Below are positions 10,229 to 44,668 of a stretch of DNA of 60,505 nt, in pieces. The stretch is from a virus (taxonomy: Duplodnaviria; Caudoviricetes). Where the stretch lies: IMG/VR virus record IMGVR_UViG_3300031672_000001, positions 1 through 60,505 of that record; one strand, written 5' to 3'. The position numbers and the translations under genes were made by a program. How positions within the stretch are numbered: position 1 is the stretch's first letter; every line of letters starts with the position of its first letter. The notes beneath the pieces were generated by a model. That model was not told the origin of the DNA and made no database searches. It saw only the letters and a program-made list of their open reading frames with translations.

Positions 10229-10234
10229 TACACT
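10229..10234 (+). promoter_or_regulatory. -10 box for a leaderless transcript
   Basis: TACACT 7 nt before GTG 10242. Confidence 0.5.
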
Positions 10235-26925: not shown

Positions 26926-27165
26926 TCATCCTTTCGCCCGACTTTCACCGCGCATAAAAGCGCGGAAAATGGCGTCCAAGCCAGCGGGAAGCTCCTGCTG
27001 TTCAAGCCAAGAGCATTGGCGACCCATGAGCACCCATTCGCCCCAAAGACCGACGACGGTCCGGTCGTCGTCGTCTAGTCGGTGGACGGCTGGGCGTCCC
27101 CCGCTACAGACGAGCCGCGCCCACTCTTCGGCCGGGCCCCCTTCACGGGCGAGCTCTCTTTTCCC
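26926..27165 (-). CDS. tail assembly chaperone, -1 frameshift extension (GT)
   Basis: ORF entered through the slippery G GGA AAA at 27159-27165. Confidence 0.8.
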   Translation of the reverse strand, partial: GKRELAREGGPAEEWARLVCSGGRPAVHRLDDDDRTVVGLWGEWVLMGRQCSWLEQQELPAGLDAIFRAFMRGESRAKG

Positions 27166-27533
27166 ACTGCCTCGCCCCGCGCGGTTTCGACAGCCACGCT
27201 GAGGCATTCGTCGATCCATGCGGCGTCCAGAGCATCGAGGGCTTCGTAATCCTCGACCTTCGGCGTGCCACCCTCGAGCGACCAGCCGACGGCGAGCAGC
27301 TCGAAGACCTTCGGGTCTCCACCCAAGGACTTACCGCGTAGGATCACGCCCTCCGGCGCGACAATCCGCTCGACGCCCGTCGAGTCGTTGATCTGTGCGT
27401 CCTCACGCTTCGAGAGCGCGACCCTCAGCTCGATCCACGCATCGTCAGCGTCGCGTTTGACTCGACCCTCGCCGAGATCCTCGCCGCGCGTGAATCGCCT
27501 CGTCCTTGTTGCATCGACTCGTTTCAGTGACAC
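27075..27533 (-). CDS. tail assembly chaperone (G)
   Basis: lies between the major tail gene and the TMP; contains GGGAAAA encoding GK. Confidence 0.8.
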   Translation of the reverse strand: MSLKRVDATRTRRFTRGEDLGEGRVKRDADDAWIELRVALSKREDAQINDSTGVERIVAPEGVILRGKSLGGDPKVFELLAVGWSLEGGTPKVEDYEALDALDAAWIDECLSVAVETARGEAVGKESSPVKGARPKSGRGSSVAGDAQPSTD

Positions 27534-27555: not shown

Positions 27556-28374
27556 TTATGGGACGCGCCGCCAGATGTGCCTGGTGACGATCATGCTCAC
27601 AAGCCCATGCGAGACACCGAAGGCTCTCGCCAACTCCGTCTGTATCGCTGGCGTATCGCGGTAAAGTCGGCGCAGCTCGATCACATCAGCCTCCGCGAGC
27701 TTTGCGCTGTGATGTGTCTCTCCACGAGAGCGATTGACTCCCGCGTGGTGACCCCAGAAATCCCCGCGATCCTTCGCCACCATGTCGTCCACGTTGACCT
27801 TCTGCGTCCCGAGGAACAGATGGGATGGACCGTGCTCATCCGCGAAAGCCTTGACGCATGGACGATTGTCACAGTGGTGAAGGGCATTGAGGCCATCGGG
27901 AATAGGCCCGTGCTCCAGCTCCCATGCGAGCCGATGCGCGGGCACGTGGCCACCGTCTCGGCAGGCCGAGCCATAGCCACCGCCAGCCGTACCGCCCGTC
28001 CACACCCAGCACGGTCCTAGCTCCGGTCGGTGCGCCGGGATCGGGCCGTCCTTGTTCACCTTGGGCCAGAAGCTCGCCCCTGGTCCGGGCGGTACGTAGG
28101 CAGCGATAGCGGCATGCACCGCCGGCCACCGCTTAGGCCGCACTCGTTGGATGCCCTTTTCCCAATTGCAGAGCAGGGCGCGCGAGATACCCAAGGTGTC
28201 CGCCAGCACGAAGGGCGGCATCCCCGCTGCTTCGCGCTCCACACGCAGGATCGCCCCATCGGGCAGCGGGTCGGCACGCCTTTCCTTCGTGACCGCCGCC
28301 TTGTAGTGGGTCGCGCATAGACCGCGACCAACGGTGGAACTAGAACACCCTTGATAGCTACATGTCGCGGTCAC
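27556..28374 (-). CDS. HTH plus HNH homing endonuclease
   Basis: XRE HTH; FWPKVNK...CWVWTG...AHRLAW...LHHCDNRPCV...HLFLGTQKVN. Confidence 0.88.
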   Translation of the reverse strand: MTATCSYQGCSSSTVGRGLCATHYKAAVTKERRADPLPDGAILRVEREAAGMPPFVLADTLGISRALLCNWEKGIQRVRPKRWPAVHAAIAAYVPPGPGASFWPKVNKDGPIPAHRPELGPCWVWTGGTAGGGYGSACRDGGHVPAHRLAWELEHGPIPDGLNALHHCDNRPCVKAFADEHGPSHLFLGTQKVNVDDMVAKDRGDFWGHHAGVNRSRGETHHSAKLAEADVIELRRLYRDTPAIQTELARAFGVSHGLVSMIVTRHIWRRVP

Positions 28375-28410: not shown

Positions 28411-29406
28411 CTAACAGTAACTTCCCACATCTCCGTTGACCCATTCGCTCGACAGCTCGTTTGAACCTTCGACTGTCGCTGAGAACGTCATCGACTGTTC
28501 GATCACGTCCGAAGCGGCCGGGTCATCCCAAACGCCCATCGGGCGCAAGCCGGGGATCGTGAACTTGACGCTGTAAGGGACATTCGATCCACCGATGAGT
28601 GCCGCTGTCGTCATAGTGATGACGATGCCGCTCGTGAGCTTTTTGTTCTTCGCTTCGATCCAGTCGTTGTAGAACGTGGTGGAAAGAAAGTCCAGGTTCG
28701 TCGTGAGCGTCACTTCACGCCGTGTCGGAACCAGACGAGCAGCGGTCAGTAGACCGTTCGACGAGAACACACGCACCGTTTTGTTGAGTAGCGCGATAGT
28801 CGTGTCCTTGAGTTCCGTGTTGGACAGTCCCTTGTAGCTGAACGCCAGCGTCGAGAAGTCAAACGGCTGGATCGTCGAGTAGGTCGGTACCAAGTCTCCC
28901 GCCGAGGGAGCGCCAGGCGTCGCAGGGGTCGCCTCCTTCTGGAGGATAAGCAGCGCCTCAGCTTCGATCAATGTCTGGTTAGTCGCCTTGATCTGGAAAC
29001 GATCGACGATACCCCCAGAGAACTGGCGGGCCAGAACCTGCTCGCCGGGGATGATGTCGTCATCGAGCTCAACGCTGCACGACGGGCACTGCGCCTGCGG
29101 AGTCAAAGCGTGGTGCGCCGCGCCGGCACTCGACGTGTAGGCGTCAGAGCCCGACCCGAACGCGTACGCGCAGAGGTTCGACCAGACGACTGGGATCAGC
29201 GGCCCGGTCAGGGTGACTTCCGTCTCAAATTTGACGGGCACGTCAGCCCTCTGACCACGATACCCGACGGACTCTTCGGGGCGCGTGACCGCGAGGTTAC
29301 TGTTTGGCTTGGCGATACACGGTACGAATAGGGTTGGTGCGACGAAGGTGCCGAAGACGGCCTCCTTGGCCACCCCAACCACTCTCTCGCTCTGGATCGG
29401 GCTCAT
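28411..29406 (-). CDS. major tail (tube) protein
   Basis: VGVAKEAVFGTFVAPT N-terminus; synteny. Confidence 0.8.
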   Translation of the reverse strand: MSPIQSERVVGVAKEAVFGTFVAPTLFVPCIAKPNSNLAVTRPEESVGYRGQRADVPVKFETEVTLTGPLIPVVWSNLCAYAFGSGSDAYTSSAGAAHHALTPQAQCPSCSVELDDDIIPGEQVLARQFSGGIVDRFQIKATNQTLIEAEALLILQKEATPATPGAPSAGDLVPTYSTIQPFDFSTLAFSYKGLSNTELKDTTIALLNKTVRVFSSNGLLTAARLVPTRREVTLTTNLDFLSTTFYNDWIEAKNKKLTSGIVITMTTAALIGGSNVPYSVKFTIPGLRPMGVWDDPAASDVIEQSMTFSATVEGSNELSSEWVNGDVGSYC

Positions 29407-29410
29407 AGCT

Positions 29411-29602
29411 CTAAGCCTTTCTGTCGGTTTTTGGTCGCCCGGAGGCGTCGGGTTTGTTCTTCTCAACCGGCTCCCAGTCCCTTGCGCGCGCATACTGCGG
29501 CACGAGATGGTCTGGGACGGGGTAGGAGCCGCCCGGTTCGACGTCCCCGACATGAGGACTGAACGCAGGGGCACTCCCTGTGTAGCGGAACTTCACGGAC
29601 AT
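29411..29602 (-). CDS. small neck/tail-associated protein
   Basis: AAAGGA RBS; typical small gene before a major tail gene. Confidence 0.6.
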   Translation of the reverse strand: MSVKFRYTGSAPAFSPHVGDVEPGGSYPVPDHLVPQYARARDWEPVEKNKPDASGRPKTDRKA

Positions 29603-30755: not shown

Positions 30756-31091
30756 TCACTCGCGCTCACTCACGTAAAACGCACGATGTTGTAATCCGAT
30801 GGCGAATCGGCGACGTCCGTTCACGACATAGACGATGGCCGTGTTGTCACCCATCTGGTCAGTGCGAGTGCCGGTGCGCAGCTCGTCTTCCTTGAGCAGT
30901 TCCAGCCATCTCGGAACCCACACCACATGCGTGGATTCAAGGCTGAATGCTTGCATCCGGTCGAAGCTCGACACCGGCACGATCTGGCACGGGATGTCCG
31001 CGAACACCTGCTGCTTGGAGCGCACGTTGACGCCCTTGGAGGGTTCCGCAACCGAACGGTAGATCGAGGCGCGTGCGGTCAGTGGAAGCAC
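30756..31091 (-). CDS. head closure protein
   Basis: size, beta-rich pattern, synteny. Confidence 0.55.
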   Translation of the reverse strand: MLPLTARASIYRSVAEPSKGVNVRSKQQVFADIPCQIVPVSSFDRMQAFSLESTHVVWVPRWLELLKEDELRTGTRTDQMGDNTAIVYVVNGRRRFAIGLQHRAFYVSERE

Positions 31092-31093
31092 GG

Positions 31094-31390
31094 CTAGCCC
31101 ACGTTCAGCGAGGCGAGCTTGCCGGAGCGTTCAAGGAAGCCGAGGGCCGCGTTGAGGCGGTCCACGGCCCCTTCGCCCCACGTACTGTTCGCCCACTGCA
31201 CGAGAGCGTCCCGCGTGGCATAAGGGTTCGCTTGGACGTACGTGTAGAGACTGCTTGAGTCCGCGAGAATGCTGGCGGCCACATCCGGCGTCAGGCCCAA
31301 TTCGGCGAGCTGAGCATCGGTCAGGAACGCTTGTGCGCCTTCCGAACCCGGGGGGACCGGCGGCGGCTTAGGTGGCTTCTTTGCTGCCAT
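31094..31390 (-). CDS. hypothetical protein
   Basis: 98-aa ORF within the operon. Confidence 0.6.
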   Translation of the reverse strand: MAAKKPPKPPPVPPGSEGAQAFLTDAQLAELGLTPDVAASILADSSSLYTYVQANPYATRDALVQWANSTWGEGAVDRLNAALGFLERSGKLASLNVG

Positions 31391-31868
31391 TTGGCTTCCT
31401 CGCTTCCGCTAGTACGCCGCCGCCCTCGTGACTAGAGCGGATGTCGATGACCTCCAAGCCGGCAGCCTCGATGATCGGTCGCATCTCCGATAGCGTGAAC
31501 GCAGCACGGTGAACATCGGCGTGATAGGACTGTGATCCGCACAAGCGCTCCGAGCATTCGGCCCAGGTGTTCTTTCCGGATTCGTAGTCCGCCAAGATCC
31601 CGCGCACATCCGGCACAATCACCGTGAGCTTCCCTCCGGGTGTCAGGATGCGTGCCCACTCCGTCAACGTCTCGTGGGTCTTGAGGACGTGCTCTAGGAC
31701 GTTGCAGGCGTAGATCTCCTCGAAACAGTCTGCGGGTAGGCCGGTGAGGCGCATGTCGCACTGGTGCGTGGTTGGGTTCCCGCGCTCTGACCAGTCGTTG
31801 ATGTCGAGTTGCTCCCAGTCGGGGTGCGCGGGGGACGGCCCTCCGCCGATCTCTAGGCGCCTTACCAT
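31368..31868 (-). CDS. class I SAM-dependent methyltransferase (type 11-like)
   Basis: LEIGGG...NVLEHV...EWARILTPGGKLTVIVPD. Confidence 0.88.
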   Translation of the reverse strand: MVRRLEIGGGPSPAHPDWEQLDINDWSERGNPTTHQCDMRLTGLPADCFEEIYACNVLEHVLKTHETLTEWARILTPGGKLTVIVPDVRGILADYESGKNTWAECSERLCGSQSYHADVHRAAFTLSEMRPIIEAAGLEVIDIRSSHEGGGVLAEARKPNGSKEAT

Positions 31869-32443
31869 GTCGCGGGCTCGTAGCCGTAATCGTGAAGGTG
31901 CCACTCGCGGAGCTGCGCGACGCGCTGGGCGTCAGGCTCCTTCTCCTGTGCATGGACCACAAGCGAATCGTCTATGCGGGCGAAAGCGCCTCCTAGGCGC
32001 TGAACGCGCTCGGGTAGCTCGCAATCCTGAAGCCAGTGCTGGTAGCGCTCATCGTAACCGTAGCCACCGATGCGTTCGTAGCCGGCGCGCGAGAATGCGT
32101 AGCACCAGGGGTTGAGTGCCCAGTTAGTTCCTGCCGGGTCGGTAGCCGACACGACCCAGTAGTCCTTCTCCGCGTCGGCGAGCGCGCTCAGTAGGGGCGG
32201 CAGCCAGTCGCCCTGTACGACCGCATCATCGTGAAGCACGACTAGGACATTCGCCTCGGCGCTCCTGAGGCCGCGGTTGACCCCCCATGTAGACCCGCGT
32301 GATCGCGCGCCGTTGTCGATTACGAGCAGCTCGTAGTCGATGCCAACGGTATGGGCATGGACGGCTTCGAGGCACCGCGTTAGAAGGTTGAGGCGAGGCC
32401 ACGTCGGCACGACGATGGATACCTCGGGCGTGGCCTCGCCCAC
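31862..32443 (-). CDS. GT2 glycosyltransferase
   Basis: VSIVVPTW...LVIDNG...NRGL...LHDD; GGAGG before GTG 32443. Confidence 0.85.
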   Translation of the reverse strand: MGEATPEVSIVVPTWPRLNLLTRCLEAVHAHTVGIDYELLVIDNGARSRGSTWGVNRGLRSAEANVLVVLHDDAVVQGDWLPPLLSALADAEKDYWVVSATDPAGTNWALNPWCYAFSRAGYERIGGYGYDERYQHWLQDCELPERVQRLGGAFARIDDSLVVHAQEKEPDAQRVAQLREWHLHDYGYEPATW

Positions 32444-32524
32444 TCGCTCAGCCTCCAGCCACAGAGGCGATGCCAGCAAAGACGCATGGCAGGAGGACGA
32501 AGGTGGCGATGCGCTTGAGGCGAC

Positions 32525-33427
32525 TCATACGGTGATCCTTTCTCTAGGTGGATGCTGCGTAAGCACTGCGGCATATCGCTCCAGGTGCAGCTCCGCGACC
32601 CGATCCCAGGAGCACTCCTCAACGAACGGTGGCGATAGGCTTTGCACCATCGAACGCTCCAATGCCGCGATGTCCGAGAGCTTGTGGACACCGTAGCCAG
32701 ATGGGATCTCACGGAACCATGTCGTGTCGGACAGGAAGACTGGTCTGCGGGTAGCGATCGCTGTGCGCGCCGCCTGGCTCGACCCGGCGGAGTCCACGTC
32801 GTCATACCAAAGGACGATCGCGTCGGCTTCGCGGAGCCATTCGTGCAGCTCACTCTGGGTCAACCATCGTCTGTCGCCGAAGCTCGCCTCGAACTTCCAG
32901 CCGTGGCGGTCGCAGATGGCGCAGATGACATCCTCGCGGCTGCGTCCGAGGCCGAACGTGCGCACCAGCGGCGGCACGTCCTCGACACCGAACGGGATCA
33001 CATCCCCGCCGGTACCAGTGTCGGCACGGTGACGGAACTGCAAATCCCACGGGCCAGGCATGTCGGGCGGAATGCACGAGTCGTGATAGGTGATCGCCGA
33101 GACGCCACCGTGACCGTTGAGGAGCCGTTGTAGACGCTGACGGTGGTAGAGCACAACCTCGTACTGACAGTGGATCACGTCGAGGCCAAGCCCTAGGATC
33201 GCCTCAGCGTCAAGCTCGCGGTGTCCATATCGGTTCCACATCTCGACATCGAAGCACGGCAGGACTTGAAGGTCTGTCGGGTCTTCGACCACTTGGCGCT
33301 CGTCATAGTTGCGCGACGCGAGGACCGTCACGTCAGCGCCAGCGCGTGCTAGGGCGTGGGCGAGATGACGGCTATAAGTGGCGATCCCACATTGCGTATC
33401 GAACGTCGTTAGCAGCCCGATCTTCAT
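32525..33427 (-). CDS. GT-B (GT4-like) glycosyltransferase
   Basis: CGIATYSRHL...ADAIVLWY...GSSQAARTAIATRRPV...SWDRVAELH. Confidence 0.85.
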   Translation of the reverse strand: MKIGLLTTFDTQCGIATYSRHLAHALARAGADVTVLASRNYDERQVVEDPTDLQVLPCFDVEMWNRYGHRELDAEAILGLGLDVIHCQYEVVLYHRQRLQRLLNGHGGVSAITYHDSCIPPDMPGPWDLQFRHRADTGTGGDVIPFGVEDVPPLVRTFGLGRSREDVICAICDRHGWKFEASFGDRRWLTQSELHEWLREADAIVLWYDDVDSAGSSQAARTAIATRRPVFLSDTTWFREIPSGYGVHKLSDIAALERSMVQSLSPPFVEECSWDRVAELHLERYAAVLTQHPPRERITV

Positions 33428-34023
33428 GTCGCCATCCTGTGCTTATCCTCCTCCGCGCTCACCCCCCACTTCTGGCGGTAGCGCTCCAAGTCTTCCGAGC
33501 AGACAGACCCGAGCTCGGGGTGTTCGCCGGTTGTCGCGTTGAGCTCGTGGACGATCGGGACGGGCAACATGACCTTGATTGGCGGGTGCCCAGCCTCGAT
33601 GAGCCGGCGGGCAAGGTCGATGTCTGACGCCCACAAGACGAACTGCTCATCGAACCCACCCAACTCCTCGAAGGCGTCGCGGCGCAGAAGCAGGCAGTAA
33701 GGAGCGAACACCTGCGGGCCGTCCGTGTGCGTCATGTCCGGCGTGCAGGCCCAGATGCCGGCCCTCGCCTGCTCAAGCAGTGGCTCGATCCAACCTTCAG
33801 CGACCTCGATGTCATCGTTGAGGGCCAGTAGAAACTTGCCTCGGGCAGCGCGTAGGGCTTGGTTCATTGGTGTGGTGTAGCCCCTCGCCTCGCTGCCCGA
33901 GTCAACTATTACGACCTCGTAGTTCACGGGTGTGTGCGCCTCGATCGAGCGCAGCAGCCGCGTTAGACGGTCGTATCCCCGCAGAGTGGCTATTCCGATT
34001 GACAGGTCAGGCGGCGAGAGCAA
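33424..34023 (-). CDS. GT2 glycosyltransferase
   Basis: VVIVDSGS...NQALRAARG...LNDD...GGFDEQF...DIDL. Confidence 0.88.
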   Translation of the reverse strand: MLSPPDLSIGIATLRGYDRLTRLLRSIEAHTPVNYEVVIVDSGSEARGYTTPMNQALRAARGKFLLALNDDIEVAEGWIEPLLEQARAGIWACTPDMTHTDGPQVFAPYCLLLRRDAFEELGGFDEQFVLWASDIDLARRLIEAGHPPIKVMLPVPIVHELNATTGEHPELGSVCSEDLERYRQKWGVSAEEDKHRMAT

Positions 34024-36103
34024 CAGACCCACCCGACAGCACCTCATCACGGCAAATCACTAGCGGGTTCCAGTCGCAGTCGCGCTCGATCTTGGCGGCT
34101 ATCTCCTCGCGCCAGTTCCAGGCATTTATGAGGATCACGTCAGGCTGCTCGACCGACAAGTGCTCCGGCGCGAAGATCGGGATGCGTGCGCCCGGCAGAT
34201 ACTTGCCCTGCTTGGAGGGCGTAGAGTCAACGATGAACTCGATCGTCTCGGGACCGATGCCGCAGTTGTGAGTGACGATCCCATCGCCCACATAAGTATG
34301 ATCGTCAGCCACCACAAGCGAATAGATGATCCCCTCGTAGTGCTCGCGCGACACACTACACGGGGTCCAGTTCGAGTACGCCGCGCGCGTCCGTTCATCG
34401 CAATGAGAGTCTGGGAGCAACACCTGCATGCCGCTACGCAAGTTGGCTGCGGCAGTCGTAACTCTGACGTGGTGGCGACCCCACGTACGGTCAGCATTAC
34501 GAAGAAAGGGGGCATCCATAAGGAGAGCGTGCGCATCAAGGCATTCCCTCGCGCGATGGCTGTTTTCCCCGATCTCTCTCCAGAACCGATCTAGCGGCAG
34601 GCCCGTCGATCGCGAGCCATGATTGATAAAGAGGGCATCGGGGAGTCCGAATCTCGCTGCAACCAGAGCCTCCGCGACCAGCGCTTCGGCCTTTGTGGCA
34701 TGCACTGATAGAACCCAAATCTCGTCAGCCTCCTGCTGATCCAAGCGGCGCAACGGCCCGTTCCCAGTCTTACCAAGGCGCCAAAGGCACTGCCCCACGC
34801 GGTACTGGTCATTGCGTCGCATGAGATAGACGACGTACTCGCCTTCATCTAGGGACTGACCGAGGACTACAATGCACTCGTGGTTCGGCGCGTAGCGGCT
34901 GCGATACTCCCCGGCTTCGACGACCACAAGATCGCCATTGTGTGTACGCGTCTTGATGTCGTCGATAGGCTTTCCACGGAGCGTTAGACCCCGATCCTGC
35001 TCGCCCCGCACGGAAGTTTTAAGTGGACGCCACGTAACAACGCGGTCACCAACGGCCAAATCCTCGATGGCGACCTCTTGCCACTCCATCTTTGGTCGTC
35101 CGCCACGCATGCCCTTCTTGGACGGCTCCCGAGGAACCCTGACCATCGTCCCCGCTGGCTGACAGTAGGACAGGAACGTAGTCGCCTTGGCTGGCGCGCC
35201 GTAGCCTGCGATGCGCTTGCCTTCGTGGCGCAGCGCGGTCAGTAGCTCCAACATCCGCTGCTTGAGCTGCGCAGGCTTGTCGGCATAGGCATGGTGGTAG
35301 TCGAGTGTGCAACCCGTCTCGCCGACGCCTACCTGGAACTTACCCGGATGGCCCGCGTAGACGCGCCAAGAGCCACCATGGACCGGCAACGCTTCGGATT
35401 GGAAGGCGTGCAGCCCACGGCGCTGCAACGCATCACTGAGCGTGTTCAGCGTGAAGTACGAGAAGTGCTCGTGATAGATCGTGTCGAACTGGTTGTGCTC
35501 GATCAGGTTGACGAGCGACGGGACCTCGATCGACACGACACCGTCCGGTGCTAGGACCGTCTTGATCCCGTTGAGGAAGTCGTCGAGGTCCGGGACGTGC
35601 GCGAGCACGTTGTTCGCCACGATCATGTCAGCTTGGTAGCCACCGGCGACCAGTTCGTCCGCCAGCTCCGACGTGAAGAATCGGTCGATCGTCGGTAGAC
35701 CTTCCAGCAGTGCTTGACGGGCTACGTTGCGAGCCGGCTCGACGCCGCAGACCGTCACGTCCCAACGATGGAAGGCTCGCAGCATCGTCCCATCGTTTGA
35801 GGCGATCTCAAGGACTCGCTCTGGCTGGAAGCGCTGGACAGCCTTCGTGGCGAACTCGTCGCAGTGCTTGACCCACGTCTGTGACTGGCCCGAGAAGAAA
35901 GCGTAGTCGCCGAAGATCTGCTCGGGCGTCTGAAAGACAGGTAGTTGTACGAGCAAGCACTCCTCGCAGATGTACGGTCGCAGCGGATAGTGCGGTTCGG
36001 GCTCGTCGAGCTGGTCTGTACGTACGTAGGCGTTCGACAATGGCGACGTGCCGAGATCCACGAACACTCGCGTCAACTCTGCTTGACAGTTACGACACGT
36101 CAT
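34007..36103 (-). CDS. NDP-sugar C-methyltransferase (Zn-finger N-terminus) containing an intein
   Basis: CRNC...DLGTSPLSN...CEECLLVQL, LEIASNDG, NNVLAHV, FDTIYHEH, HGGS, GYGAPAK, KQGKYLPG, AWN. Confidence 0.92.
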   Translation of the reverse strand: MTCRNCQAELTRVFVDLGTSPLSNAYVRTDQLDEPEPHYPLRPYICEECLLVQLPVFQTPEQIFGDYAFFSGQSQTWVKHCDEFATKAVQRFQPERVLEIASNDGTMLRAFHRWDVTVCGVEPARNVARQALLEGLPTIDRFFTSELADELVAGGYQADMIVANNVLAHVPDLDDFLNGIKTVLAPDGVVSIEVPSLVNLIEHNQFDTIYHEHFSYFTLNTLSDALQRRGLHAFQSEALPVHGGSWRVYAGHPGKFQVGVGETGCTLDYHHAYADKPAQLKQRMLELLTALRHEGKRIAGYGAPAKATTFLSYCQPAGTMVRVPREPSKKGMRGGRPKMEWQEVAIEDLAVGDRVVTWRPLKTSVRGEQDRGLTLRGKPIDDIKTRTHNGDLVVVEAGEYRSRYAPNHECIVVLGQSLDEGEYVVYLMRRNDQYRVGQCLWRLGKTGNGPLRRLDQQEADEIWVLSVHATKAEALVAEALVAARFGLPDALFINHGSRSTGLPLDRFWREIGENSHRARECLDAHALLMDAPFLRNADRTWGRHHVRVTTAAANLRSGMQVLLPDSHCDERTRAAYSNWTPCSVSREHYEGIIYSLVVADDHTYVGDGIVTHNCGIGPETIEFIVDSTPSKQGKYLPGARIPIFAPEHLSVEQPDVILINAWNWREEIAAKIERDCDWNPLVICRDEVLSGGSVALAA
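34265..35164 (-). mobile_element. intein (300 aa)
   Basis: begins CQPAGT, ends HTYVGDGIVTHN, +1 residue is Cys; removal restores TFLSY-CGI. Confidence 0.92.
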
Positions 36104-36353
36104 CGCTATCCATCCGCGACTCGATGTTGTACGTCCCGTCCTCGGGATCGCGCTCGACCCACAGGGAAATGTCATCGCCGTTCTCGATCTCAAGCGTCAT
36201 CACTCCGACCTCCCGTAGCTCTGCGATCACCGTCTCGCGCAACTGGTCCTGTTCGGCGTAGATCTCATGCTCACGGTCCGCGAGTTTATGCAGCTCGCAG
36301 AGCAGGTCGGCGTAGCGAGCGATGTCGCCTATCGCTGCGGACCGTTCGGCCAT
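36090..36353 (-). CDS. acidic hypothetical protein
   Basis: coupled ORF MAERSAAIGD... Confidence 0.55.
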   Translation of the reverse strand: MAERSAAIGDIARYADLLCELHKLADREHEIYAEQDQLRETVIAELREVGVMTLEIENGDDISLWVERDPEDGTYNIESRMDSDDVS

Positions 36354-37690
36354 CACACGGGTGGATCGTAGGTTCCCCACTTCCCGAAATAATACTCTGC
36401 ATTCCGGATGCCTGCGGTGTCCGGTCCGGTGCGACGTGATCGGGTGCTCATTCCTTGGTGGAAGACCTGGGACCGTGGAGTGATTACAACGCGATAGCCA
36501 GCGTTGAGGACGCGCCTGTTGAAATCCCAGTCCTCCCGCCCGCCTATTTCCACGAAGCCCTCGTCGAACAGTCCGATCTCCCGTAGGACGCTCGCCCGGA
36601 CAAGGTATGCCTGCTCGTGTCCGTCAATCATCGTCTCGGGGATTGTGTCGCGCGTGTTCGCCGCGCAGACCTTCCCGACCGTCGGCCAACAGCGCAGCTC
36701 GTGCAGCAAGCCTTTGAGCCACTCGGGATCGTTGAAGCGCATGTCCGGGTGAATCCACCCGACGTACTCGCAACCGTCAGCAAGGGCCTCGCGGAACATC
36801 CGGTTGAGCGACTCCGTGAGCGACAGGGTTGGTCCCGGCGCGTTTAGTCGGTAGATGCGGAACTCGCCCCCCGTCTGCTTCAGCGTCGCCAGCATCGCCT
36901 CGACCTGCTCCTCATCGCCGGGCATCGTCAGCAGCACCAGTCCGACCTTTGGTGGCTCGGGTTCTGACTCGCCCTGCAACGCCACCGGACAGACCGGGTA
37001 GTCCTCGATCAAGTCCGCCACGGCTGGCGGATAGTCCAGCGTGAAGCGTGTGGCCACGCTCACCCGGTCGTCGATGATGTGCTCGGGGTTCTGACCCGCA
37101 TAGTGCTCGGGTTCGCCTTCGATCTCGCTGTAGCGCCGCCAACGCTCGAAGACATTGGGCTGCGGACGGAGGTAGGAGAAATGAAGATATCTGTAGTCGG
37201 CGACCACGGGATTGCGTCGAGTCGTGTGCAGCTGCTCATGGACCTTGCCGACGAACTGCGTGTCTGGGTACTTGCGGAAGACGATCTCGCGTGGGTAGAC
37301 CGCTTGCACGGCATCGCGGTAGCACACGAAGTGATGGAAGGCGGCTGTGATCGAGTCGGCACCGTTGGCTAAGTAGTAGCCACAGATGTCGCGCCACTCC
37401 GGGAAGTGGACTTCATCGCCGTCGAGAATCATCACGAAGTCGCCGTCGGGGACCCACTCCAAGCCCTTATTACGCGCTGCCGCGAAGTCAAGACCGGGCT
37501 CTGGCATCGTGCTCGTGAGCAGTTTCTTCTCAGGGACCACCGATCGTACGATCGCCATGTTGCGAGCCGAACCCTCGGTATCAGGCGCGGTCTCGACGAT
37601 CACGAAGTAGTCGCACCATCCGACGGACTTGAGTGCTGCTTCGAGGAACGGCTCATCGAGATCGCTCAGTAGGACTTGTGCGCCGATCAT
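36353..37690 (-). CDS. tandem GT2-GT2 glycosyltransferase
   Basis: domain 1 DFAAARN...LDGDE...VHE; domain 2 HPD...IGLFDEGF...EDWDF. Confidence 0.88.
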   Translation of the reverse strand: MIGAQVLLSDLDEPFLEAALKSVGWCDYFVIVETAPDTEGSARNMAIVRSVVPEKKLLTSTMPEPGLDFAAARNKGLEWVPDGDFVMILDGDEVHFPEWRDICGYYLANGADSITAAFHHFVCYRDAVQAVYPREIVFRKYPDTQFVGKVHEQLHTTRRNPVVADYRYLHFSYLRPQPNVFERWRRYSEIEGEPEHYAGQNPEHIIDDRVSVATRFTLDYPPAVADLIEDYPVCPVALQGESEPEPPKVGLVLLTMPGDEEQVEAMLATLKQTGGEFRIYRLNAPGPTLSLTESLNRMFREALADGCEYVGWIHPDMRFNDPEWLKGLLHELRCWPTVGKVCAANTRDTIPETMIDGHEQAYLVRASVLREIGLFDEGFVEIGGREDWDFNRRVLNAGYRVVITPRSQVFHQGMSTRSRRTGPDTAGIRNAEYYFGKWGTYDPPV

Positions 37691-38739
37691 GTTCCCGCCA
37701 TCCCCTCGATCACGTCCAACCACCGCCGAGCACACTTGCCCCAGTTGAACTCTTGTGCGACGAACTCAGCGCCTGCTAAGCCCCTCGCGTTCGCCGCCTG
37801 CCTATCCTCAAATACCTCGCGCATCCTGCGCCTGAGATCGGCGACGCTCGGCCGTGCGAAGTTGCCGATTGGCTGGTGCCCGGCGACGTTCGCGTCGTAG
37901 CTCGAACACGATGGTGGCGCCGGCTCCAAGCACTCAACCTCGACCGGGTAGCTGTAGGACTCGTCCGCGATCTCTTGCAGGCCGCCCCAGTCCGTCAGGA
38001 TCGTCGGGAGGCCGGTAGCCATCGCCTCGCGCGGGGTGAGACCGGACGCCTCACCACGGGACGGCGCAAGGAAACAGTCCGCCGTGCCGTAGAGTTCGCG
38101 CATCTCCTCCCGCGTGGCGTCTCCGGCGATCACTCGGATGCGGGGATCGTCGAGTCGCTCATCTCCCACGTCGAGGAAGTTCCGGCGCGTCTTGAGGATC
38201 AGCCGTACATCCTCGCTGCCGAACTCCTCACGGAAGGCTCGAACCGCGAACTCCGCACCCTTGCGGTAATGCAGCATTCCAGTCATCAAGAACGTGAACG
38301 GACCCTCGTGCTCTCGCTCCACGGGTCGGTAGAAGTCGATATCGACTCCGAGCGGCACGACCTTGACCGGCACGTCTAGCTTCGCCTGGAATGCTTCGCG
38401 GCAATGCTCTGACGGGACGATGATCCCGTTCGTCGCGTTGCAGCACGGTATCCAGAACGGTGGGATCGAATCCGTCTCGAACATGGTCGAGCCGAGCGTG
38501 ACCCGAGAGCGGAAGCGCGTAAAAGCGAAGGGAAGGAAGTGGACGATCACCGTGTCTCGGGTGATCTGCGGTGCTTGAAGATCGAGCAGCTTGGGATCGG
38601 TGTAACGCGGGTCCTGCCAATCGTGTGAGATGAACTCGACGTCTGCGCCCAACTCAGTTGCAGCGAGCACCATCCGCTCGGCGCTGACTCCGTAGCCATC
38701 GGCGGATGCGAGGGGAGCCACCACTGAGAATGGCCTCAT
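37687..38739 (-). CDS. GT4 glycosyltransferase
   Basis: TMFET, RKG, PSRGEASGLTPREAMATGLP. Confidence 0.92.
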   Translation of the reverse strand: MRPFSVVAPLASADGYGVSAERMVLAATELGADVEFISHDWQDPRYTDPKLLDLQAPQITRDTVIVHFLPFAFTRFRSRVTLGSTMFETDSIPPFWIPCCNATNGIIVPSEHCREAFQAKLDVPVKVVPLGVDIDFYRPVEREHEGPFTFLMTGMLHYRKGAEFAVRAFREEFGSEDVRLILKTRRNFLDVGDERLDDPRIRVIAGDATREEMRELYGTADCFLAPSRGEASGLTPREAMATGLPTILTDWGGLQEIADESYSYPVEVECLEPAPPSCSSYDANVAGHQPIGNFARPSVADLRRRMREVFEDRQAANARGLAGAEFVAQEFNWGKCARRWLDVIEGMAGT

Positions 38740-39509
38740 ACACAAGCCTTCAGACGACCGTCTCCGCAAGGGGCAGGATCGTTGTGCGCGGACGTGATAA
38801 GCGCCTGCTCATCCATGTAGTGAGTCGCGTACAGGTCCGTGTCCCACAGACACTCGTATCCGAGCCGATCAAGGTCCTGAGCGAACCCCATATCCTCGCC
38901 GCATTCGTGAAAGGCATACTTCGCCGTCTCGACCACTTGCCGACGCATCGCCACGGCAGCCATCGGAATGTCTATCGGGATGACGCCGTGCGCCTCCTTG
39001 GCTGTCGCGCGCCGCCAAGCTCGGTCAGGACTGCCGGGCTCTCCGCCGGCCCACCAGCCCGCATTGAAACACTCGGATGCTGCGCCAGTCGGATGGAGGT
39101 ACGTGAGCGGTGCCGCAACTGGTGCCCGCTCAAGCAGCTCAAGCAGACGCTCTATCGTGGTGGGATCTTCGAGCATCAGATCCGTGTCGAGCGAGATGAA
39201 CACGTCCGGATCGCGCTTCTGCACCATTTGGAGCAGTCGGTTACGTCGCCAAGCGAAATCGCCGTACACGAACCTCGTCTCTACACTGGCACGCTCCATC
39301 CTCGGCACGTAGCGGGTCTGGTCGATCGCGTAGGAGAGCTTCGCTTGCGGCACATGGTCATGGATGATCTGCCGTGATTGATCGTCGCCCACCTCACCGA
39401 TGACAAAGACGAACTCGTCCGGCACGCGGGTCTGAGAGTAGATGCACTGAAACCACTTTGGGAGCGACCAAGCTCGCGCCGCCACGGGTGCTCCGACGAC
39501 GACCTTCAT
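38736..39509 (-). CDS. GT-A fold glycosyltransferase
   Basis: RN...ISLDTD (DxD)...GEDMGF...THY. Confidence 0.8.
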   Translation of the reverse strand: MKVVVGAPVAARAWSLPKWFQCIYSQTRVPDEFVFVIGEVGDDQSRQIIHDHVPQAKLSYAIDQTRYVPRMERASVETRFVYGDFAWRRNRLLQMVQKRDPDVFISLDTDLMLEDPTTIERLLELLERAPVAAPLTYLHPTGAASECFNAGWWAGGEPGSPDRAWRRATAKEAHGVIPIDIPMAAVAMRRQVVETAKYAFHECGEDMGFAQDLDRLGYECLWDTDLYATHYMDEQALITSAHNDPAPCGDGRLKACV

Positions 39510-40213
39510 CAGCGGAGAGGCTCGTAACCGGCGATGTTGAGCCCTTCGGATTCCGAGACGAACGCTTCTTCCTTCTCCGCCCCGCGCGAGTAGTACGCGA
39601 GTCGGTCGGCCTCGGCTCGCGCTTCGAGTTCCTTGGCTTGCGTCGCATAGGACTTTGCGAGGTCTGAGAAGTTGATGCCCGTGTCGCCGGCCTTCTGGTC
39701 AGCGATGTTCGCGGTGCGCATCAACGCGCGTAGGGACAGGGCCGAGGCGTACCGTGTCAGAGCGCCAGTGAGACCGTCGGGAACTTCAGCGACCGCATCG
39801 AACTCTCGCAGCCACCGTCGGGATTCTTCTACGAACTGGTCGATCTCACCATCACTCAGATACTGCCATGCGTAGCTCACGAGCAGTTCTTTGACGGGCG
39901 CGTGCGCCAACGTGAAGTTGCCGTAGGCGTCCACGTCCTTGGTTGGCGATGTCGGGGTCCACGCGCCGTCTACGAACGCGACAAGCGTTGCGGGGACCGC
40001 TGTGACCGTCATGTGCTCCTGTGTCGGCACGAGGTCATAGCGGACCTGGAAGACGGTCTGCGTAGGCGTTGCCGCTATGGACACCTGATCCGTGAGCGGT
40101 TCGAGACGGACCATGTTAAACGGGACGGGTGTCGCGTCGAGCGTGCTCAGGCCGTCGCGTATCTGGTGGCGAACCGCATTGCGGGCGGTGAGGACTGTCG
40201 CGTTTTCTGGCAT
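39509..40213 (-). CDS. head-tail adaptor-like protein
   Basis: VRHQIRD...LSDGEIDQF; synteny. Confidence 0.55.
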   Translation of the reverse strand: MPENATVLTARNAVRHQIRDGLSTLDATPVPFNMVRLEPLTDQVSIAATPTQTVFQVRYDLVPTQEHMTVTAVPATLVAFVDGAWTPTSPTKDVDAYGNFTLAHAPVKELLVSYAWQYLSDGEIDQFVEESRRWLREFDAVAEVPDGLTGALTRYASALSLRALMRTANIADQKAGDTGINFSDLAKSYATQAKELEARAEADRLAYYSRGAEKEEAFVSESEGLNIAGYEPLR

Positions 40214-40292
40214 CGGCTCACCTACCTTTCACGCAAAGGGGCAGCCCCGGAGCAGCATCCTCGCGGCTCCAGCCAGATCGAGTGTGGTCGCA

Positions 40293-42194
40293 TCACAGCC
40301 ACCCGATGACGAGCATCGGAGCACCGGCTGCTTGATCGGAAAGAGTAGTGGCAAAGGTGGCCGGTAGTGTAGTTATTGAACCGATGTATTGAGATTGAGT
40401 AGCGAGGGTAAAGGCATCAGACAAGCTACCATTCGCGAGCCACGGGTTCCTTACGGTAGTTCCGTGAGCACTGATTTGTGCCGCCGTGGTGGCACTCTTA
40501 TCAAGGTAAGCGAGCCAATAGAGCCCAGGGACAAGCGCCAGCGGAGTGCTAAGTTCTCCCGTGACAATCCCGGTCGATGTATTGCTGACACTTACCGATC
40601 CCAAAAGCTTACCCGCGTTACCTAGACCATTGTCTGAGTAAATACCAAGTTCGGCGGTCCCGTTACCGACCGTCGAAACGGAAATGGACAGTGACTTGAT
40701 GCTCCCCCCATTCACCAGGGAGAAGGGTATAACGTGTGCGTCTTTTGTCGCGAAGGTGACGCCAATAAGCGCCCCCAGGGCTATCTGGCTGTACCGTCCG
40801 GAGTGGGCTGAAACTCCGTAGCCGTATCCTGTACTAGGTTGTCTTACGTCGGAGCATTCGACGAGTGTCATCCCAAGCTGGCTTAGATCGACATGAGCGC
40901 ATTTGGTCAGCACTCCGAGAGAGCCCAAGGTGCCGGCCCCATAACTCTCGTTGATACCTATTGACAGACCGTTGACTCCCGTGACGACAATAGGAGTAGT
41001 CACAGAGTTGTCGATTTGATTCCCCGCTATTATCACCCTGGAGAAGGAGCCCGCCGCACCTGCAACCACCACATTTACCCCGGCAGTTGCGCTATCGGTC
41101 CCCATCTGATTACCAATAATCTGAAGGCGCTGCAACGTACCGTTTGTGAGTTCACCGCTCTGTTTAACATTGACCGCCGCCGTGGCGAAACCCTCCAGCG
41201 AGTTATTAGAGATCAAATAATCGAGTCCTCCCACACCATCCGGCACAGCAATATCAATGCAGTAAGATCCTGTGGCATTCGCCAGCATCTTACATGAGGA
41301 GATCTTGATGCCTTGGGCTCCGCCTTCAATGCGGGTAACGGCGCCGGTAGGCACCCTAGCCGATCCGGCACCAGTGAACCCGTTCCCGAGAACCGCCCCA
41401 AGGAGGGTAAAGTCTCCGGAGTTCCCGCCTATCCGCAAACAGTTGGCGACAGCATTGACCGCAGCGGTACGGGAACTCATGGACCAGTCGCTACCATTCT
41501 GAATGTCGAAGTTTCGATAGAACCCCTTGACCGCTATGTCGTAGCGACAGCCGCTCCCCCCGGAACTGACCAGAACACCCGCCCCGGCGGTGGGGGTAGT
41601 AGCGGTGCACTCAAGAGCGAAGTCATCTAGAGTCACCCCGCTAGAGGTAATTGTGACTGGCGTCGCCGTCCCAGAAGTACAGATGACATGGGTCGGGGGA
41701 GCCGTCGCGGACCAAGCAGGATCGGGTAGGCCAGTGCCCGCGATCTTACACGGCTTGTTGATGGTGATCCCATTGGTCCAGTCGAAGGGGACCGAACCCG
41801 TTGCTGGCAGCAAGATCATCCCACCCGTCGCAGGGAGAGCAGCCAAAGCAGAGGCGAAGTTGGCACAGTCCGTGGCGGAACTACCGGAGGGGGCAGAAAT
41901 GCTGGTTATCACACCAAGCACGCTCGTGGGCTTTAGCTTCCCGCTCGATCCCTGATAGGCGAGATAGTTGCCATCGACGATGCCCGTCGAGTCGATATCC
42001 TTGGGGCTCGCGCTACTATCGCTTACCACCGAGAGCGGAACTTGCGATGCGGTCAAGTGGGATTCGCTGTCGAGACTCGCCACACCGCTCGCGGCACCCT
42101 TTTCGGATTGTGCTATGTACGGTCCAACCGGCGACGGAGGGCCGACTTGCAGCGCTGACGGTTGACTGATCGTTATGCCGAGAGGTTCGTTCAT
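40293..42194 (-). CDS. fibre/spike protein with right-handed beta-helix (depolymerase-like)
   Basis: EKGAASGVASLD fibre motif; pectate-lyase-like start (ANFASALAAL..GG.I.LP); repeated I.GN strands. Confidence 0.75.
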   Translation of the reverse strand: MNEPLGITISQPSALQVGPPSPVGPYIAQSEKGAASGVASLDSESHLTASQVPLSVVSDSSASPKDIDSTGIVDGNYLAYQGSSGKLKPTSVLGVITSISAPSGSSATDCANFASALAALPATGGMILLPATGSVPFDWTNGITINKPCKIAGTGLPDPAWSATAPPTHVICTSGTATPVTITSSGVTLDDFALECTATTPTAGAGVLVSSGGSGCRYDIAVKGFYRNFDIQNGSDWSMSSRTAAVNAVANCLRIGGNSGDFTLLGAVLGNGFTGAGSARVPTGAVTRIEGGAQGIKISSCKMLANATGSYCIDIAVPDGVGGLDYLISNNSLEGFATAAVNVKQSGELTNGTLQRLQIIGNQMGTDSATAGVNVVVAGAAGSFSRVIIAGNQIDNSVTTPIVVTGVNGLSIGINESYGAGTLGSLGVLTKCAHVDLSQLGMTLVECSDVRQPSTGYGYGVSAHSGRYSQIALGALIGVTFATKDAHVIPFSLVNGGSIKSLSISVSTVGNGTAELGIYSDNGLGNAGKLLGSVSVSNTSTGIVTGELSTPLALVPGLYWLAYLDKSATTAAQISAHGTTVRNPWLANGSLSDAFTLATQSQYIGSITTLPATFATTLSDQAAGAPMLVIGWL

Positions 42195-42517
42195 GGGAGC
42201 TTGTATTCCATCGTGCCGTCCAACGGGAACCACGTCACGCCAGTCTTCGTGATGCTCAGGAAGTAGTGCGCGTTGGTGCCGGCTTGAACTTCGGCGGTCT
42301 GCGCTGGGGTCATCGTGATTTCTATCTTGCCTTCGGCCACCGTGACTGTCAGGCCGCTGCCGCTCGTGAGCGTGAGGACGCCTTCGATCTTGAGTTCGAC
42401 CGTGTAACCCGTCAAGTTGAAATGTTTCGTGTGCGCCGCGTCTTCCCACAGTTCGATAGTGCGTTCAAACGTGCCACCGACATAGACGACGAGCGGTTCG
42501 TGTGCCGGCGTCAACAT
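42191..42517 (-). CDS. small Ig-like fibre-associated protein
   Basis: GGTF...NLTGYTV...ITMTPAQT. Confidence 0.65.
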   Translation of the reverse strand: MLTPAHEPLVVYVGGTFERTIELWEDAAHTKHFNLTGYTVELKIEGVLTLTSGSGLTVTVAEGKIEITMTPAQTAEVQAGTNAHYFLSITKTGVTWFPLDGTMEYKLP

Positions 42518-43528: not shown

Positions 43529-44668
43529 TCAGTTGCCCCGCCAAGCGAAGCGACTGTCGATCATCTGCGTCGCAAAACGCCGACGAACCCTGTAGCGGTA
43601 CTCGTCCAGCTCGAACGATGTACCCGCCGTCGGGTTCTCCTGGACGATCTCCAGACCCTCACGGTCCTGGAAGACCACGCTCTTCTTGGTCTCCATCAGG
43701 AACCATGCGCCGTGGGAATCGTCGAGGCCAGGACCCTTCAGTCCTGGACCACCCAGCTTCGTGGTTGAACCCGGCAGGAAGCGCGACACCTTCGCGGTGT
43801 ACTCACCCTGCAACGGGTTGATCGTCATCGTCCAGCCCGTCCCACCCGATGAGGCGGTGTTCACGGTCTGACCAGCCGCACCGGGAACAGACGGCTGGAG
43901 CGTCGAGTTGAGCAGCTTCAGCACGTTGAACTTGTCCGAGGGCGATACGAGCACCGTGTCGGGCATGACCAGCATGAAGTTGCCGAGCGGGTCCACCATG
44001 TTCTGGAGACCCACATCGCCTTCTTCCAAGCCACTCTGAGACAGGCCACCCGGAGCCGAAGGCGTATTGCCGATGGCTGTCGTGTAGCCGGTCGTTGCGA
44101 CTTTGCCGAACGTGTCAGCCGCTTCGACGATCGCGATCATCACCTGTAGCTCTTCGATGTAGCGCATGAGCTGGCCGAGGTTCGCGGCACGCTGGGAGAT
44201 CTGTCCCGTCATGTCATCGTCCACCAGTTCCCGCTGGAAGGCCAAGAGACGACCCCACTTGCGGTTACGGACGTGGACGTCCAGTCCGACGATACGACTG
44301 TCGGGGAACGGTTCGCCCGGAAGCACTTCTTCGGGGAGCTCCGAGTTGTACAGCGGCGCGTAGAGCTCCTCGTACTTGTTCGAGCTCGTCACTCGCACCA
44401 AGTCCTGGAAGATCGTCGGCACCGTCTGGTAGGCGTCGAACATGAACTGTTGGACGCCCGCGCGCAGGAGTTGAGGGAAGCTCGACTCTGCGACGGCCTC
44501 GCGCATCTTTCCGACAAGAGACTCGCGGAGCTTCAGGACGGAGAAGTCTGGGTCCTGCCAGTCGATCTGCTCATACGGATCGACTTTGCAGGCTTTCACA
44601 CAGCTCTGTCGTGTGCTCTCGCGGACCTTCTCGATGCGCTTGGCCTGAATGGTTCTCAGGTCCATCAT
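43529..44668 (-). CDS. major capsid protein (Mu gpT-like, HK97 fold)
   Basis: KWGRLLAFQRELVDDD...PDTVLVSP...AWFL...DSRFAWRG. Confidence 0.88.
   Translation of the reverse strand: MMDLRTIQAKRIEKVRESTRQSCVKACKVDPYEQIDWQDPDFSVLKLRESLVGKMREAVAESSFPQLLRAGVQQFMFDAYQTVPTIFQDLVRVTSSNKYEELYAPLYNSELPEEVLPGEPFPDSRIVGLDVHVRNRKWGRLLAFQRELVDDDMTGQISQRAANLGQLMRYIEELQVMIAIVEAADTFGKVATTGYTTAIGNTPSAPGGLSQSGLEEGDVGLQNMVDPLGNFMLVMPDTVLVSPSDKFNVLKLLNSTLQPSVPGAAGQTVNTASSGGTGWTMTINPLQGEYTAKVSRFLPGSTTKLGGPGLKGPGLDDSHGAWFLMETKKSVVFQDREGLEIVQENPTAGTSFELDEYRYRVRRRFATQMIDSRFAWRGN

Follow-up and report, generated by a model that had tools for sequence, protein, structure and literature searches.

The window analysed here is the whole of the IMG/VR record IMGVR_UViG_3300031672_000001, a linear stretch of 60,505 bp from a member of the Caudoviricetes (estimated to be ~57 per cent complete, with a G + C [GC] content of ~0.62). 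On its minus strand, at 31368–39509, lies a cassette of six glycosyltransferase (GT) genes encoding seven GT domains, a gene for a small class-I methyltransferase and a gene for a sugar 3-C-methyltransferase (C-MT). We judge it moderately probable that this cassette is expressed late, acts in the cytoplasm and glycosylates a component of the virion, and that it belongs to the neck module of a family of virulent siphophages. We favor this reading because the cassette is coupled to structural genes and holds a fixed neck position across sequence divergence and changing GC content, and because its enzymes are predicted to be soluble, export and priming genes do not accompany them in the window, the tailoring genes change faster, and the mycobacteriophages offer a precedent. 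With seven GT domains, the cassette is much larger than the GT sets of those mycobacteriophages, and it is fixed in the neck module throughout a family of uncultured phages with genomes of ~105 kb.

The cassette region comprises 11 genes that run in one direction and show translational coupling, both with the gene for the portal adaptor upstream and with connector genes downstream. With start codons that are supported by homologs, nine of the ten junctions overlap (as TGATG, as ATGA or by 7–44 nt), including both junctions with structural genes (that between a 234-amino-acid [aa] adaptor and the first GT, and that between the methyltransferase and a 98-aa gene). An earlier note on this DNA, made from the sequence alone, had described all of these genes as coupled, which holds save at one junction, where 45–81 nt separate the last GT2 gene from the GT4-like gene. 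Terminator-like sites are absent from the minus (coding) strand between positions 27000 and 46900, where a single, weak promoter-like site was detected. The gene content listed in the same note was recovered, as Pfam recognizes both the type-11 methyltransferase and the C-MT along with five of the GT genes (PHROGs and NCBIfam do so in part), and GTs of both the GT-A and the GT-B fold are present, the sixth (257 aa) being called GT-A from the ESM Atlas only. Its gene list was nevertheless incomplete, having overlooked a 300-aa intein in the C-MT and a conserved small open reading frame (ORF). PADLOC returned nothing beyond a generic match to a methyltransferase domain.

Relatives of the phage were found by searching IMG/VR with the C-MT and with an alignment of the adaptor. 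Structural proteins of the close relatives (L002/L006 and L007) are 72–94 per cent identical to those of the window, and three distant relatives (L167, L168 and L169, with GC contents of 0.567, 0.659 and 0.699) share 67–69 per cent identity in the capsid protein and 51–55 per cent in the adaptor. The cassette occupies the same site in all six members that have sequence beyond the adaptor (the window, L002, L007, L167, L168 and L169; L170 ends inside the adaptor and is outside this count). That site lies after the adaptor and before genes for proteins of 98, 111, 188 and 186 aa, at capsid identities of 67–88 per cent and GC contents of 0.57–0.70. All six share a core consisting of the GT-A, GT4, double GT2, GT4-like and GT2 genes and a methyltransferase gene. 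The C-MT is found in four of the six (the window, L002, L007 and L167) and is absent from L168, from L169 and from the whole complete genome behind L169, a distribution by which it is an accessory module and not part of the core. Of the syntenic unit that had been proposed, C-MT plus GTs in a neck module, the GT core is therefore kept throughout and the C-MT is not. The record behind L169 (G008) is 105,537 bp long, has terminal repeats and is rated complete; searches of this genome for integrases (recombinases of the tyrosine and serine types) and for Tet/JBP and ThyA-like genes found none. Because of its length and the missing integrase, the family probably consists of virulent phages with ~105-kb genomes, a size that agrees with the 57 per cent completeness estimated for the window.

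The coupling and the constant position also bear on an unlikely alternative, namely that the enzymes, working from the cytoplasmic face, modify a glycoconjugate of the host envelope (a lipid-linked precursor, a wall teichoic-acid-like polymer or a glycolipid), which could possibly serve to stop progeny from re-adsorbing to debris, to exclude competing phages or to aid release. Against it, the cassette is coupled to structural genes on both sides and keeps one neck position in six of six members despite GC contents of 0.57–0.70, a range that implies different hosts. Nor is it a locus for lysogenic conversion, since an integrase is missing from the complete relative. The GT2 and GT4 genes do match exopolysaccharide EpsD/EpsE-type and other cell-glycan families, and Pfam scans of the window turned up no priming transferase, flippase or polymerase and hydropathy profiles of the cassette enzymes no membrane-like segment (maximum over 19 residues ≤1.56), although soluble GTs could use lipid-linked intermediates of the host without any phage export genes. 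Elsewhere, phage C-MT genes often do lie apart from structural genes: among the 79 IMG/VR loci that encode a C-MT relative, 17 besides the window's were annotated with Pfam (ORFs ≥150 aa, within 10 kb), and ten of these are sugar islands or other regions away from structural modules.

The individual GT genes all lie on the minus strand. The first cassette gene in all family members, with homologs in L002, L007, L167, L168 and L169, encodes the putative 257-aa GT-A-fold enzyme (38736–39509; Glyco_tranf_2_4/GT25-like). This protein has no Pfam or NCBIfam match and reaches a PHROG glycosyltransferase profile only at E = 0.054; its assignment comes from ESM Atlas clusters of Glyco_tranf_2_4 (PF13704; feature score of 0.97, structure TM of 0.85), and it has a D-x-D-like motif, judged by eye. 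Next is a GT4 of the GT-B fold (37687–38739, ~350 aa from the ATG at 38739, in an ORF at 37687–38769), which matches Glyco_trans_1_4 (4.4e-14), Glycos_transf_1 (2.5e-13), GT4-conflict (2.7e-11) and PHROG 2170 (1.8e-38), begins with an ATGA overlap with the upstream stop and is 90–91 per cent identical to its copies in L002 and L007. It is followed by a two-domain GT2 (36353–37690, ~445 aa from the ATG at 37690, in a 460-aa ORF at 36353–37735). The N-terminal domain of this protein matches Glycos_transf_2 (PF00535; 1.3e-5), and its C-terminal domain is similar by BLAST to a 208-aa GT2, with matches to the NCBIfam MftF-GT region (1.7e-4) and, below the cut-off, to Glyco_trans_2_3 (PF13632; E = 0.0035).

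A small ORF (36090–36380, 96 aa at most and 87 aa from the ATG at 36353) links the double-GT2 gene to the C-MT. It has no family match and was not found in L167, L168 or L169, but because it is conserved in L002 and L007 (tblastn identities of 68 and 76 per cent) we take it, from conservation, to be a real gene. Beyond the C-MT lie a GT2 of ~200 aa (33424–34050; PF00535 1.4e-11, PHROG 2456 3.6e-9; 69 per cent identity in L002, 46–53 per cent in L168/L169) and a 300-aa GT4-like protein of the GT-B fold (32525–33427), which has an ATGA overlap with the upstream stop, matches Glyco_trans_4_4 (PF13579; 1.5e-7) and PF13439 (3.2e-7) in its N-terminal half and shows identities of 59 per cent in L002 and 43–52 per cent in L167/L168/L169. 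The last GT2 (31862–32479; PF00535 9.5e-11; likely start GTG at 32443, preceded by GGAGG) is 51 per cent identical to its L002 copy. The cassette closes with the small class-I S-adenosylmethionine (SAM)-dependent methyltransferase (31368–31904, likely ATG at 31868; Methyltransf_11, PF08241, 1.5e-6; PF13489 3.9e-6; 42–47 per cent identity in L168/L169), presumed from its family to be a sugar O-methyltransferase. In L002 and L167, a CmcI/rhamnosyl-O-methyltransferase-like gene stands in its place. Compared with L002, the distal cassette genes are 51–69 per cent identical, whereas the flanking structural and connector genes are 82–94 per cent identical.

The C-MT is encoded as a precursor of 698 aa from an ATG at 36103 (34007–36103, minus strand, in a 728-aa ORF at 34007–36193). 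It matches Methyltransf_13 (PF08421; 3.6e-20), Methyltransf_23 (PF13489; 1.9e-19) and Methyltransf_14 (PF08484; 1.7e-33), the last in two stretches that flank the intein and are contiguous in L002 (4.8e-49). The intein-free C-METHYLTRANSFERASE of L002 is 77–88 per cent identical to the exteins of the window and has full-length matches to MtmC (4rv9; 1.6e-76), TcaB9 (3ndi; 1.3e-59) and the 5t64 enzyme (3e-57). Four zinc-ribbon cysteines are invariant in our alignment A1 and present in the window's protein, as is a Tyr-x-Glu-His motif (YHEH) that aligns with that of 4rv9. By reference to the TcaB9 literature, YHEH would be the active-site motif, and both it and the zinc-binding cysteines would have catalytic roles. 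By domain order and motifs, the protein belongs to the NDP-hexose (NDP, nucleoside diphosphate) C-methyltransferases of the TcaB9/MtmC/TylC3 type.

The likely sugar substrate is indicated by the relatives. The L002 cassette contains a gene for a GDP-mannose 4,6-dehydratase (hereafter GMD; PF16363 5e-113; TIGR01472 1e-105, below that model's strict cut-off), and in L167 such a gene directly adjoins the C-MT gene. Because L002 and L167 encode GMD inside the cassette, the branched sugar of this lineage is probably GDP-linked and not dTDP-linked as for TcaB9/EryBIII. The window itself has no GMD gene (only a 24-residue trace at E = 0.007), and family scans of the window bear out the earlier statement that no dehydratase or epimerase is encoded there. 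The accompanying proposal of an NDP-keto-sugar supplied by the host fits the window but does not extend to L002 and L167, which carry their own GMD, and the sugar would be of the GDP rather than the dTDP type. Reliance of a phage C-MT on a host keto-sugar is plausible from gene content, because two complete C-MT-bearing phages lack GMD-family genes (G004 and G005, the records of L025 and L027, in which we also found no Tet/JBP, C5 methylase or ThyA gene). A GMD-like gene adjoins a C-MT homolog in only one of the 80 bacterial loci retrieved and in eight of 80 viral loci (seven distinct contigs), so that GDP use is not general for the C-MT family. The C-MT of Streptomyces argillaceus also has 4-ketoreductase activity according to the portion of PMC3539893 available to us, and we speculate that a similar built-in activity, by analogy with MtmC, could account for our finding no separate reductase.

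Taken as a pathway, the C-MT precursor would lose its intein of 300 aa by splicing and become an enzyme of 398 aa, and the spliced enzyme would methylate C-3 of an NDP-4-keto-6-deoxyhexose. The substrate would most probably be GDP-4-keto-6-deoxy-D-mannose, made by the phage GMD in the relatives and by the host here. The GTs would add sugars singly, the branched one included, onto one or more virion proteins in the cytoplasm, and the small methyltransferase would O-methylate a sugar. From the variation among relatives, we infer that the core cassette is ancient in the family and that the C-MT, either alone or together with GMD, can be exchanged as an extra that would alter the make-up of the glycan. 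A bolder version, which we advance tentatively, is that the virion bears a hetero-oligosaccharide that varies among strains and in some members includes a GDP-derived 6-deoxy-3-C-methyl-hexose, that the locus resembles an O-antigen locus, and that selfish elements spread between co-infecting glycotypes. If this were true, no phage particle before it would have carried a branched-chain sugar, and evolution of the locus would be O-antigen-like, with a stable core and an exchange of tailoring modules (the C-MT, alone or with GMD, and alternative O-methyltransferases).

Compared with the alleles of L002 and L003, the intein (34265–35164, minus strand, 300 aa, inside the Methyltransf_14 domain) is inserted exactly and in frame, directly after a conserved, glycine-rich GYGAPAK stretch in the C-terminal domain. 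Its junctions have Cys at residue 1, His-Asn at the end and Cys at +1, and the exteins sum to 398 aa, the normal size of a C-MT. In a tblastn search with the 728-aa ORF, residues 344–663 matched annotated helicase inteins of the SPO1 group (SPO1 gp34.33 and CampHawk; 27–28 per cent identity over ~310 residues, E ~1e-12), which have the same splice-junction residues. The Pfam Intein_splicing match lies below the cut-off (E = 0.0063, 16.8 bits), and block B (Thr-x-x-His), inspected by eye, retains the His and has Ala at the Thr position. By these features, the C-MT is interrupted by an intein, with splicing predicted. Its central domain has no Pfam or PHROG family and, by eye, may look GIY-YIG-like; a search of PDB sequences with the intein gave nothing below E = 0.4, and DNA identity around the insertion site revealed no co-conversion tract. 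Among the best 120 of 8,000 scored C-MT homologs, the window's protein alone carries an intein, and the other 119 are 392–453 aa long. Unlike the SPO1-group inteins, which reside in DNA-metabolism or packaging proteins, this one would be an unusual mobile protein-splicing element in a sugar-biosynthesis enzyme, for which natural intein-free alleles exist as controls. An HNH endonuclease gene with a helix-turn-helix domain (27556–28374, minus strand) separates the gene for the tail tube from that for the chaperone and is missing in L002, and relatives of it (42–44 per cent identity) lie within the glycan cassette or on its border in other members (L007:6716-7315 and L168:16989-17447). The intein and the HNH genes together mark the region as a target of homing elements.

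The earlier note had considered DNA modification less likely than virion glycosylation, and our searches bear this out. For the GTs to hypermodify phage DNA, they would have to build a glycan on 5-hydroxymethyl-pyrimidines, with the C5-cytosine DNA methylase encoded at 57767–59038 (minus strand; PF00145 4e-42) as the enzyme of the first step, on the model of the MT/5mYOX/GT pathways of Pyle et al. Six-frame searches of the (incomplete) window found no Tet/JBP or ThyA-like gene, with ThyX and unknown hydroxylases outside the scope of the search; both are absent from the complete G008 as well, and G004 and G005 lack both together with the C5 methylase. A preprint on phage DNA sugar-hypermodification clusters (Pyle et al., bioRxiv 10.1101/2023.12.21.572611) describes, in the parts available to us, GTs of phages, of both the GT-A and the GT-B type, that can build mono- to trisaccharides on 5-hydroxymethylcytosine, and some clusters that lie near structural genes. 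The cassette resembles these in having GT-A and GT-B enzymes akin to those that make cell-surface glycans and in its structural neighbors. Such pathways are usually clustered according to the same text, whereas the methylase here is ~18 kb from the cassette, and the neighbors that define those clusters (5mYOX [Tet/JBP] or ThyS) are missing from the window and from the complete relative. On balance, we regard a role in DNA modification as very improbable.

Several observations weigh against glycosylation of the virion. No acceptor protein was identified for the glycan, and the C-termini of the capsid and tube proteins, inspected by eye, show no serine/threonine-rich tail, unlike those of Che8-type phages as reported second-hand. 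The nearest named families of the GTs (exopolysaccharide, mycofactocin and glycogen-type enzymes) are silent on a protein acceptor, no 4-ketoreductase was found, and the window covers just ~57 per cent of a genome. GDP-sugar specificity rests on two relatives, at a GMD adjacency of one in 80 retrieved bacterial loci, and the ten of 17 surveyed loci outside structural modules point away from the virion. The proposal of virion glycosylation in the earlier note thus gains from the retention of the cassette in all six members and from the lack of Tet/JBP, ThyA-like and integrase genes in G008, and falls short at the acceptor and at the capsid and tube tails.

The same gap leaves some room for another cytoplasmic target (a small molecule or a protein, either of the host or of the phage but outside its virion) or for selfish cargo with no role in the particle, which we consider improbable. 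In its favor, the region is an insertion hot spot (with a variable fibre slot, HNH genes and the intein). Yet the core, with intact catalytic-looking motifs, has been kept while capsid proteins diverged to 67–69 per cent identity, and the tight coupling argues for selected co-expression with structural proteins. Glycosylation of the virion remains the reading that we prefer.

The genes that flank the cassette were assessed by fold and conservation. The 234-aa protein upstream (39509–40213, minus strand), the stop of which overlaps the start of the first GT (TGATG), has 35 homologs, none named, and no Pfam or PHROG match. Its AlphaFold2 (AF2) model (pLDDT of 82.6) gives VIA-align Z scores of 8.0–11.1 over residues 1–232, values for which caution is due, since helical proteins call for it below a Z of ~13. 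Phage neck complexes make up 25 of the 27 top rows (with adaptor or neck matches in cyanophage A4, P-SCSP1u, GP4, T4 gp13/14, SU10, T7 gp11 and PhiM1), and Foldseek matches are weak (best E = 2.8e-3). With that caution, the model leads us to accept the protein as a portal-binding head-to-tail adaptor. Downstream, a conserved 98-aa protein (31094–31390, minus strand), the gene of which starts 23 nt inside the methyltransferase gene, is 94 per cent identical to its L002 copy and has no family match. It is followed by a 111-aa protein (30756–31091, minus strand) that the earlier note had labeled head closure. This protein has no Pfam or PHROG match, an all-beta AF2 model of low confidence (pLDDT of 54.3; best Foldseek E = 1.1) and 16 proteins listed in its search, including the window's own, none of them named. 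The placement of the cassette between adaptor and head-closure genes thus stands as to position and adaptor fold, with the head-closure label unconfirmed. Homologs of the adaptor (71 per cent), the 111-aa protein (74 per cent) and the C-MT (68 per cent) all occur on one 925,329-bp contig, on which a relative may be integrated or may have been co-assembled.

Between the connector genes and the adaptor, at 40293–42517 (minus strand) and in DNA of lower GC content (0.573), lie genes for a 108-aa beta-sandwich protein (PHROG 1084 2.3e-10, with a weak LtfC-like match) and a fibre/tailspike-like protein of ~630 aa (minor-tail N-terminal motif at E = 8.5e-4, tailspike match at 0.0023). Neither L002 nor L168 has anything in this slot, whereas L007 has another fibre-like gene there (784 aa), and in L167, L169 and L170 its length is 3.6–8 kb. 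Judged by its contents, it may be a variable slot for neck or head fibres.

All structural genes of the window are on the minus strand, and the cassette has the major capsid protein on one side and the tail tube on the other. They comprise the large terminase (50935–52521), the portal (48775–50925), a protease/scaffold-like gene (45238–46719), a 171-aa decoration-like gene in order between the latter and the major capsid protein, the major capsid protein itself (43529–44668; Phage_capsid_4 9e-13), the tail tube (28411–29574; Phage_tube_2 8.7e-16) and the tape measure (21581–26863). The HNH gene and a chaperone-like gene lie between the tail tube and the tape measure, where overlapping ORFs of 152 and 97 aa (26926–27533, minus strand), upstream of the tape measure, occupy the usual spot of a frameshifted tail-assembly-chaperone pair. 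Elsewhere on the minus strand are a 192-aa ORF with a NUMOD3 motif (3377–3955; E = 5.6e-5), which may be homing-endonuclease-like, and genes for a DPBB/RlpA-like lytic transglycosylase domain protein (9565–10233; PF03330 1.2e-10) and a peptidase-like protein (11579–12418; PHROG 16701 6.7e-12), together a probable lysis region. No tRNA genes were found in the window.

A megablast search of 31000–40300 against cultured phages returned no matches. The capsid protein found two distant matches, both records of Methanoculleus virus (an archaeal virus), and the terminase found partial ones (34–46 per cent identity) in cyanophages and in Arthrobacter, Microbacterium and Gordonia phages. The GT4 matched 157 phage records, 127 of them from Streptomyces phages. 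From the terminase, capsid and GT4 matches, we would guess, weakly, at an actinobacterial host.

In the wider survey of phage C-MT loci, the gene lies inside the head or packaging module in seven of the 17, and additionally in L005 (protease, an HK97-type capsid gene, then a block of GT, dehydrogenase and C-MT genes). These seven are among the nine most similar loci. The C-MT gene lies between terminase and portal in L008 and near the terminase and a fibre gene in L013; four loci (L016, L018, L020 and L025) share the order capsid, C-MT, methyltransferase, GT2, GT9, SU10-type adaptor, and in L027 the C-MT goes with an SU10 capsid and an SU10 adaptor. The remaining two of the nine (L009:507-8753 and L012:3217-13087) are sugar islands in which the C-MT accompanies two or three B12-binding radical-SAM enzymes, a CmcI-type O-methyltransferase, a nucleotidyltransferase and a dehydratase, a content that suggests multiply methylated sugars. 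None of the eight more distant, low-GC loci has the gene in a head operon; they are T4-like replication or plastic regions or sugar islands. One viral C-MT sugar island has two IS605 OrfB/TnpB-like genes with a Cas12f-like TNB domain (L022:8236-9405 and L022:15439-16704).

Bacterial C-MT homologs share at most ~50 per cent identity and are spread over many phyla, giving no host or donor signal. In the C-MT tree, the row nearest to the window lineage is the viral L003 (with a support of 99). We did not draw an origin of the C-MT from the split between viral and bacterial sequences, which is biased because, out of at least 595 hits in bacteria, we kept the best 80. In L003 (224–11811), the C-MT, the nearest viral one (52–54 per cent identical), follows transaldolase-like, GHMP kinase, SIS-domain isomerase, hexapeptide transferase, methyltransferase, GT2 and dehydratase genes; by gene content, it looks like a phage-encoded heptose-nucleotide pathway feeding the C-MT.

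Islands of GT and methyltransferase genes in phage structural operons are already known experimentally. What appears to be new here, judging by gene content, is that so large a cassette is fixed in the neck module of a whole family, that the structural operon of a tailed phage can include an optional C-methyl module for a GDP-sugar, and that a sugar enzyme holds an intein; keyword searches of open-access text found no account of any of the three. To our knowledge, glycosylation of phage virions has been shown for just a few mycobacteriophages, which have small GT sets; Freeman and colleagues, in Cell Host Microbe in 2023, are said to have reported it for Che8, Corndog and Myrna. If the glycan is on the virion, it would bear on antigenicity, stability and host recognition, and the cassette would yield soluble GTs with a defined protein acceptor.

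Among these systems, Corndog encodes an O-methyltransferase and GTs (gp35–38) between its portal and protease genes, the products of which are not themselves virion components, according to the portion of PMC4351075 available to us. Excerpts of PMC11256854 and PMC12619734 report, second-hand, glycans on mycobacteriophage capsid and tube proteins and, for Che8-type phages, glycan-bearing C-terminal extensions on the capsid and tail-tube subunits. The window resembles the mycobacteriophage systems in combining phage GTs with an O-methyltransferase and, as in Corndog, in having them inside the virion structural operon. It differs in having six GT genes plus a sugar C-MT where those have two or three GT genes, in a position between adaptor and connector instead of portal and protease, in capsid and tube proteins without C-terminal acceptor tails and in being known from genes alone. 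No Mycobacterium phage is among the 157 phage records that match the window's GT4. In Streptomyces phage Moab, the GTs lie beside ribonucleotide reductase and lysin genes and not in the neck module.

We know of carbon-branched deoxysugars from antibiotics, spores and lipopolysaccharide, and of none from phage particles; our open-access keyword literature search likewise found no description of a 3-C-methyl sugar on a phage virion, nor of a natural intein in a C-methyltransferase or in a phage sugar methyltransferase. The C-MT shares its zinc ribbon, SAM domain, C-terminal domain and YHEH motif with MtmC, TcaB9, the 5t64 enzyme, TylC3 and EryBIII. Unlike these, it is encoded by a phage and split by an intein, and its partners are GMD (in the relatives) and GTs and not dTDP-sugar genes. 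A closer parallel in gene content is virenose of Coxiella burnetii, for which the part of PMC3539893 available to us proposes, in silico, a GDP route consisting of GMD, a TylCIII-like C-MT and a reductase. The cassettes of L002 and L167 contain the same pair of GMD and TylCIII-type C-MT, with a predicted product of the same 6-deoxy-3-C-methyl-hexose class. The Coxiella route, itself unproven, serves lipopolysaccharide and includes a reductase, whereas we found no epimerase or reductase gene in the phage cassette. The phage pair of GMD and C-MT offers a direct biochemical test of this long-proposed, unproven GDP route to 3-C-methyl-6-deoxyhexoses.

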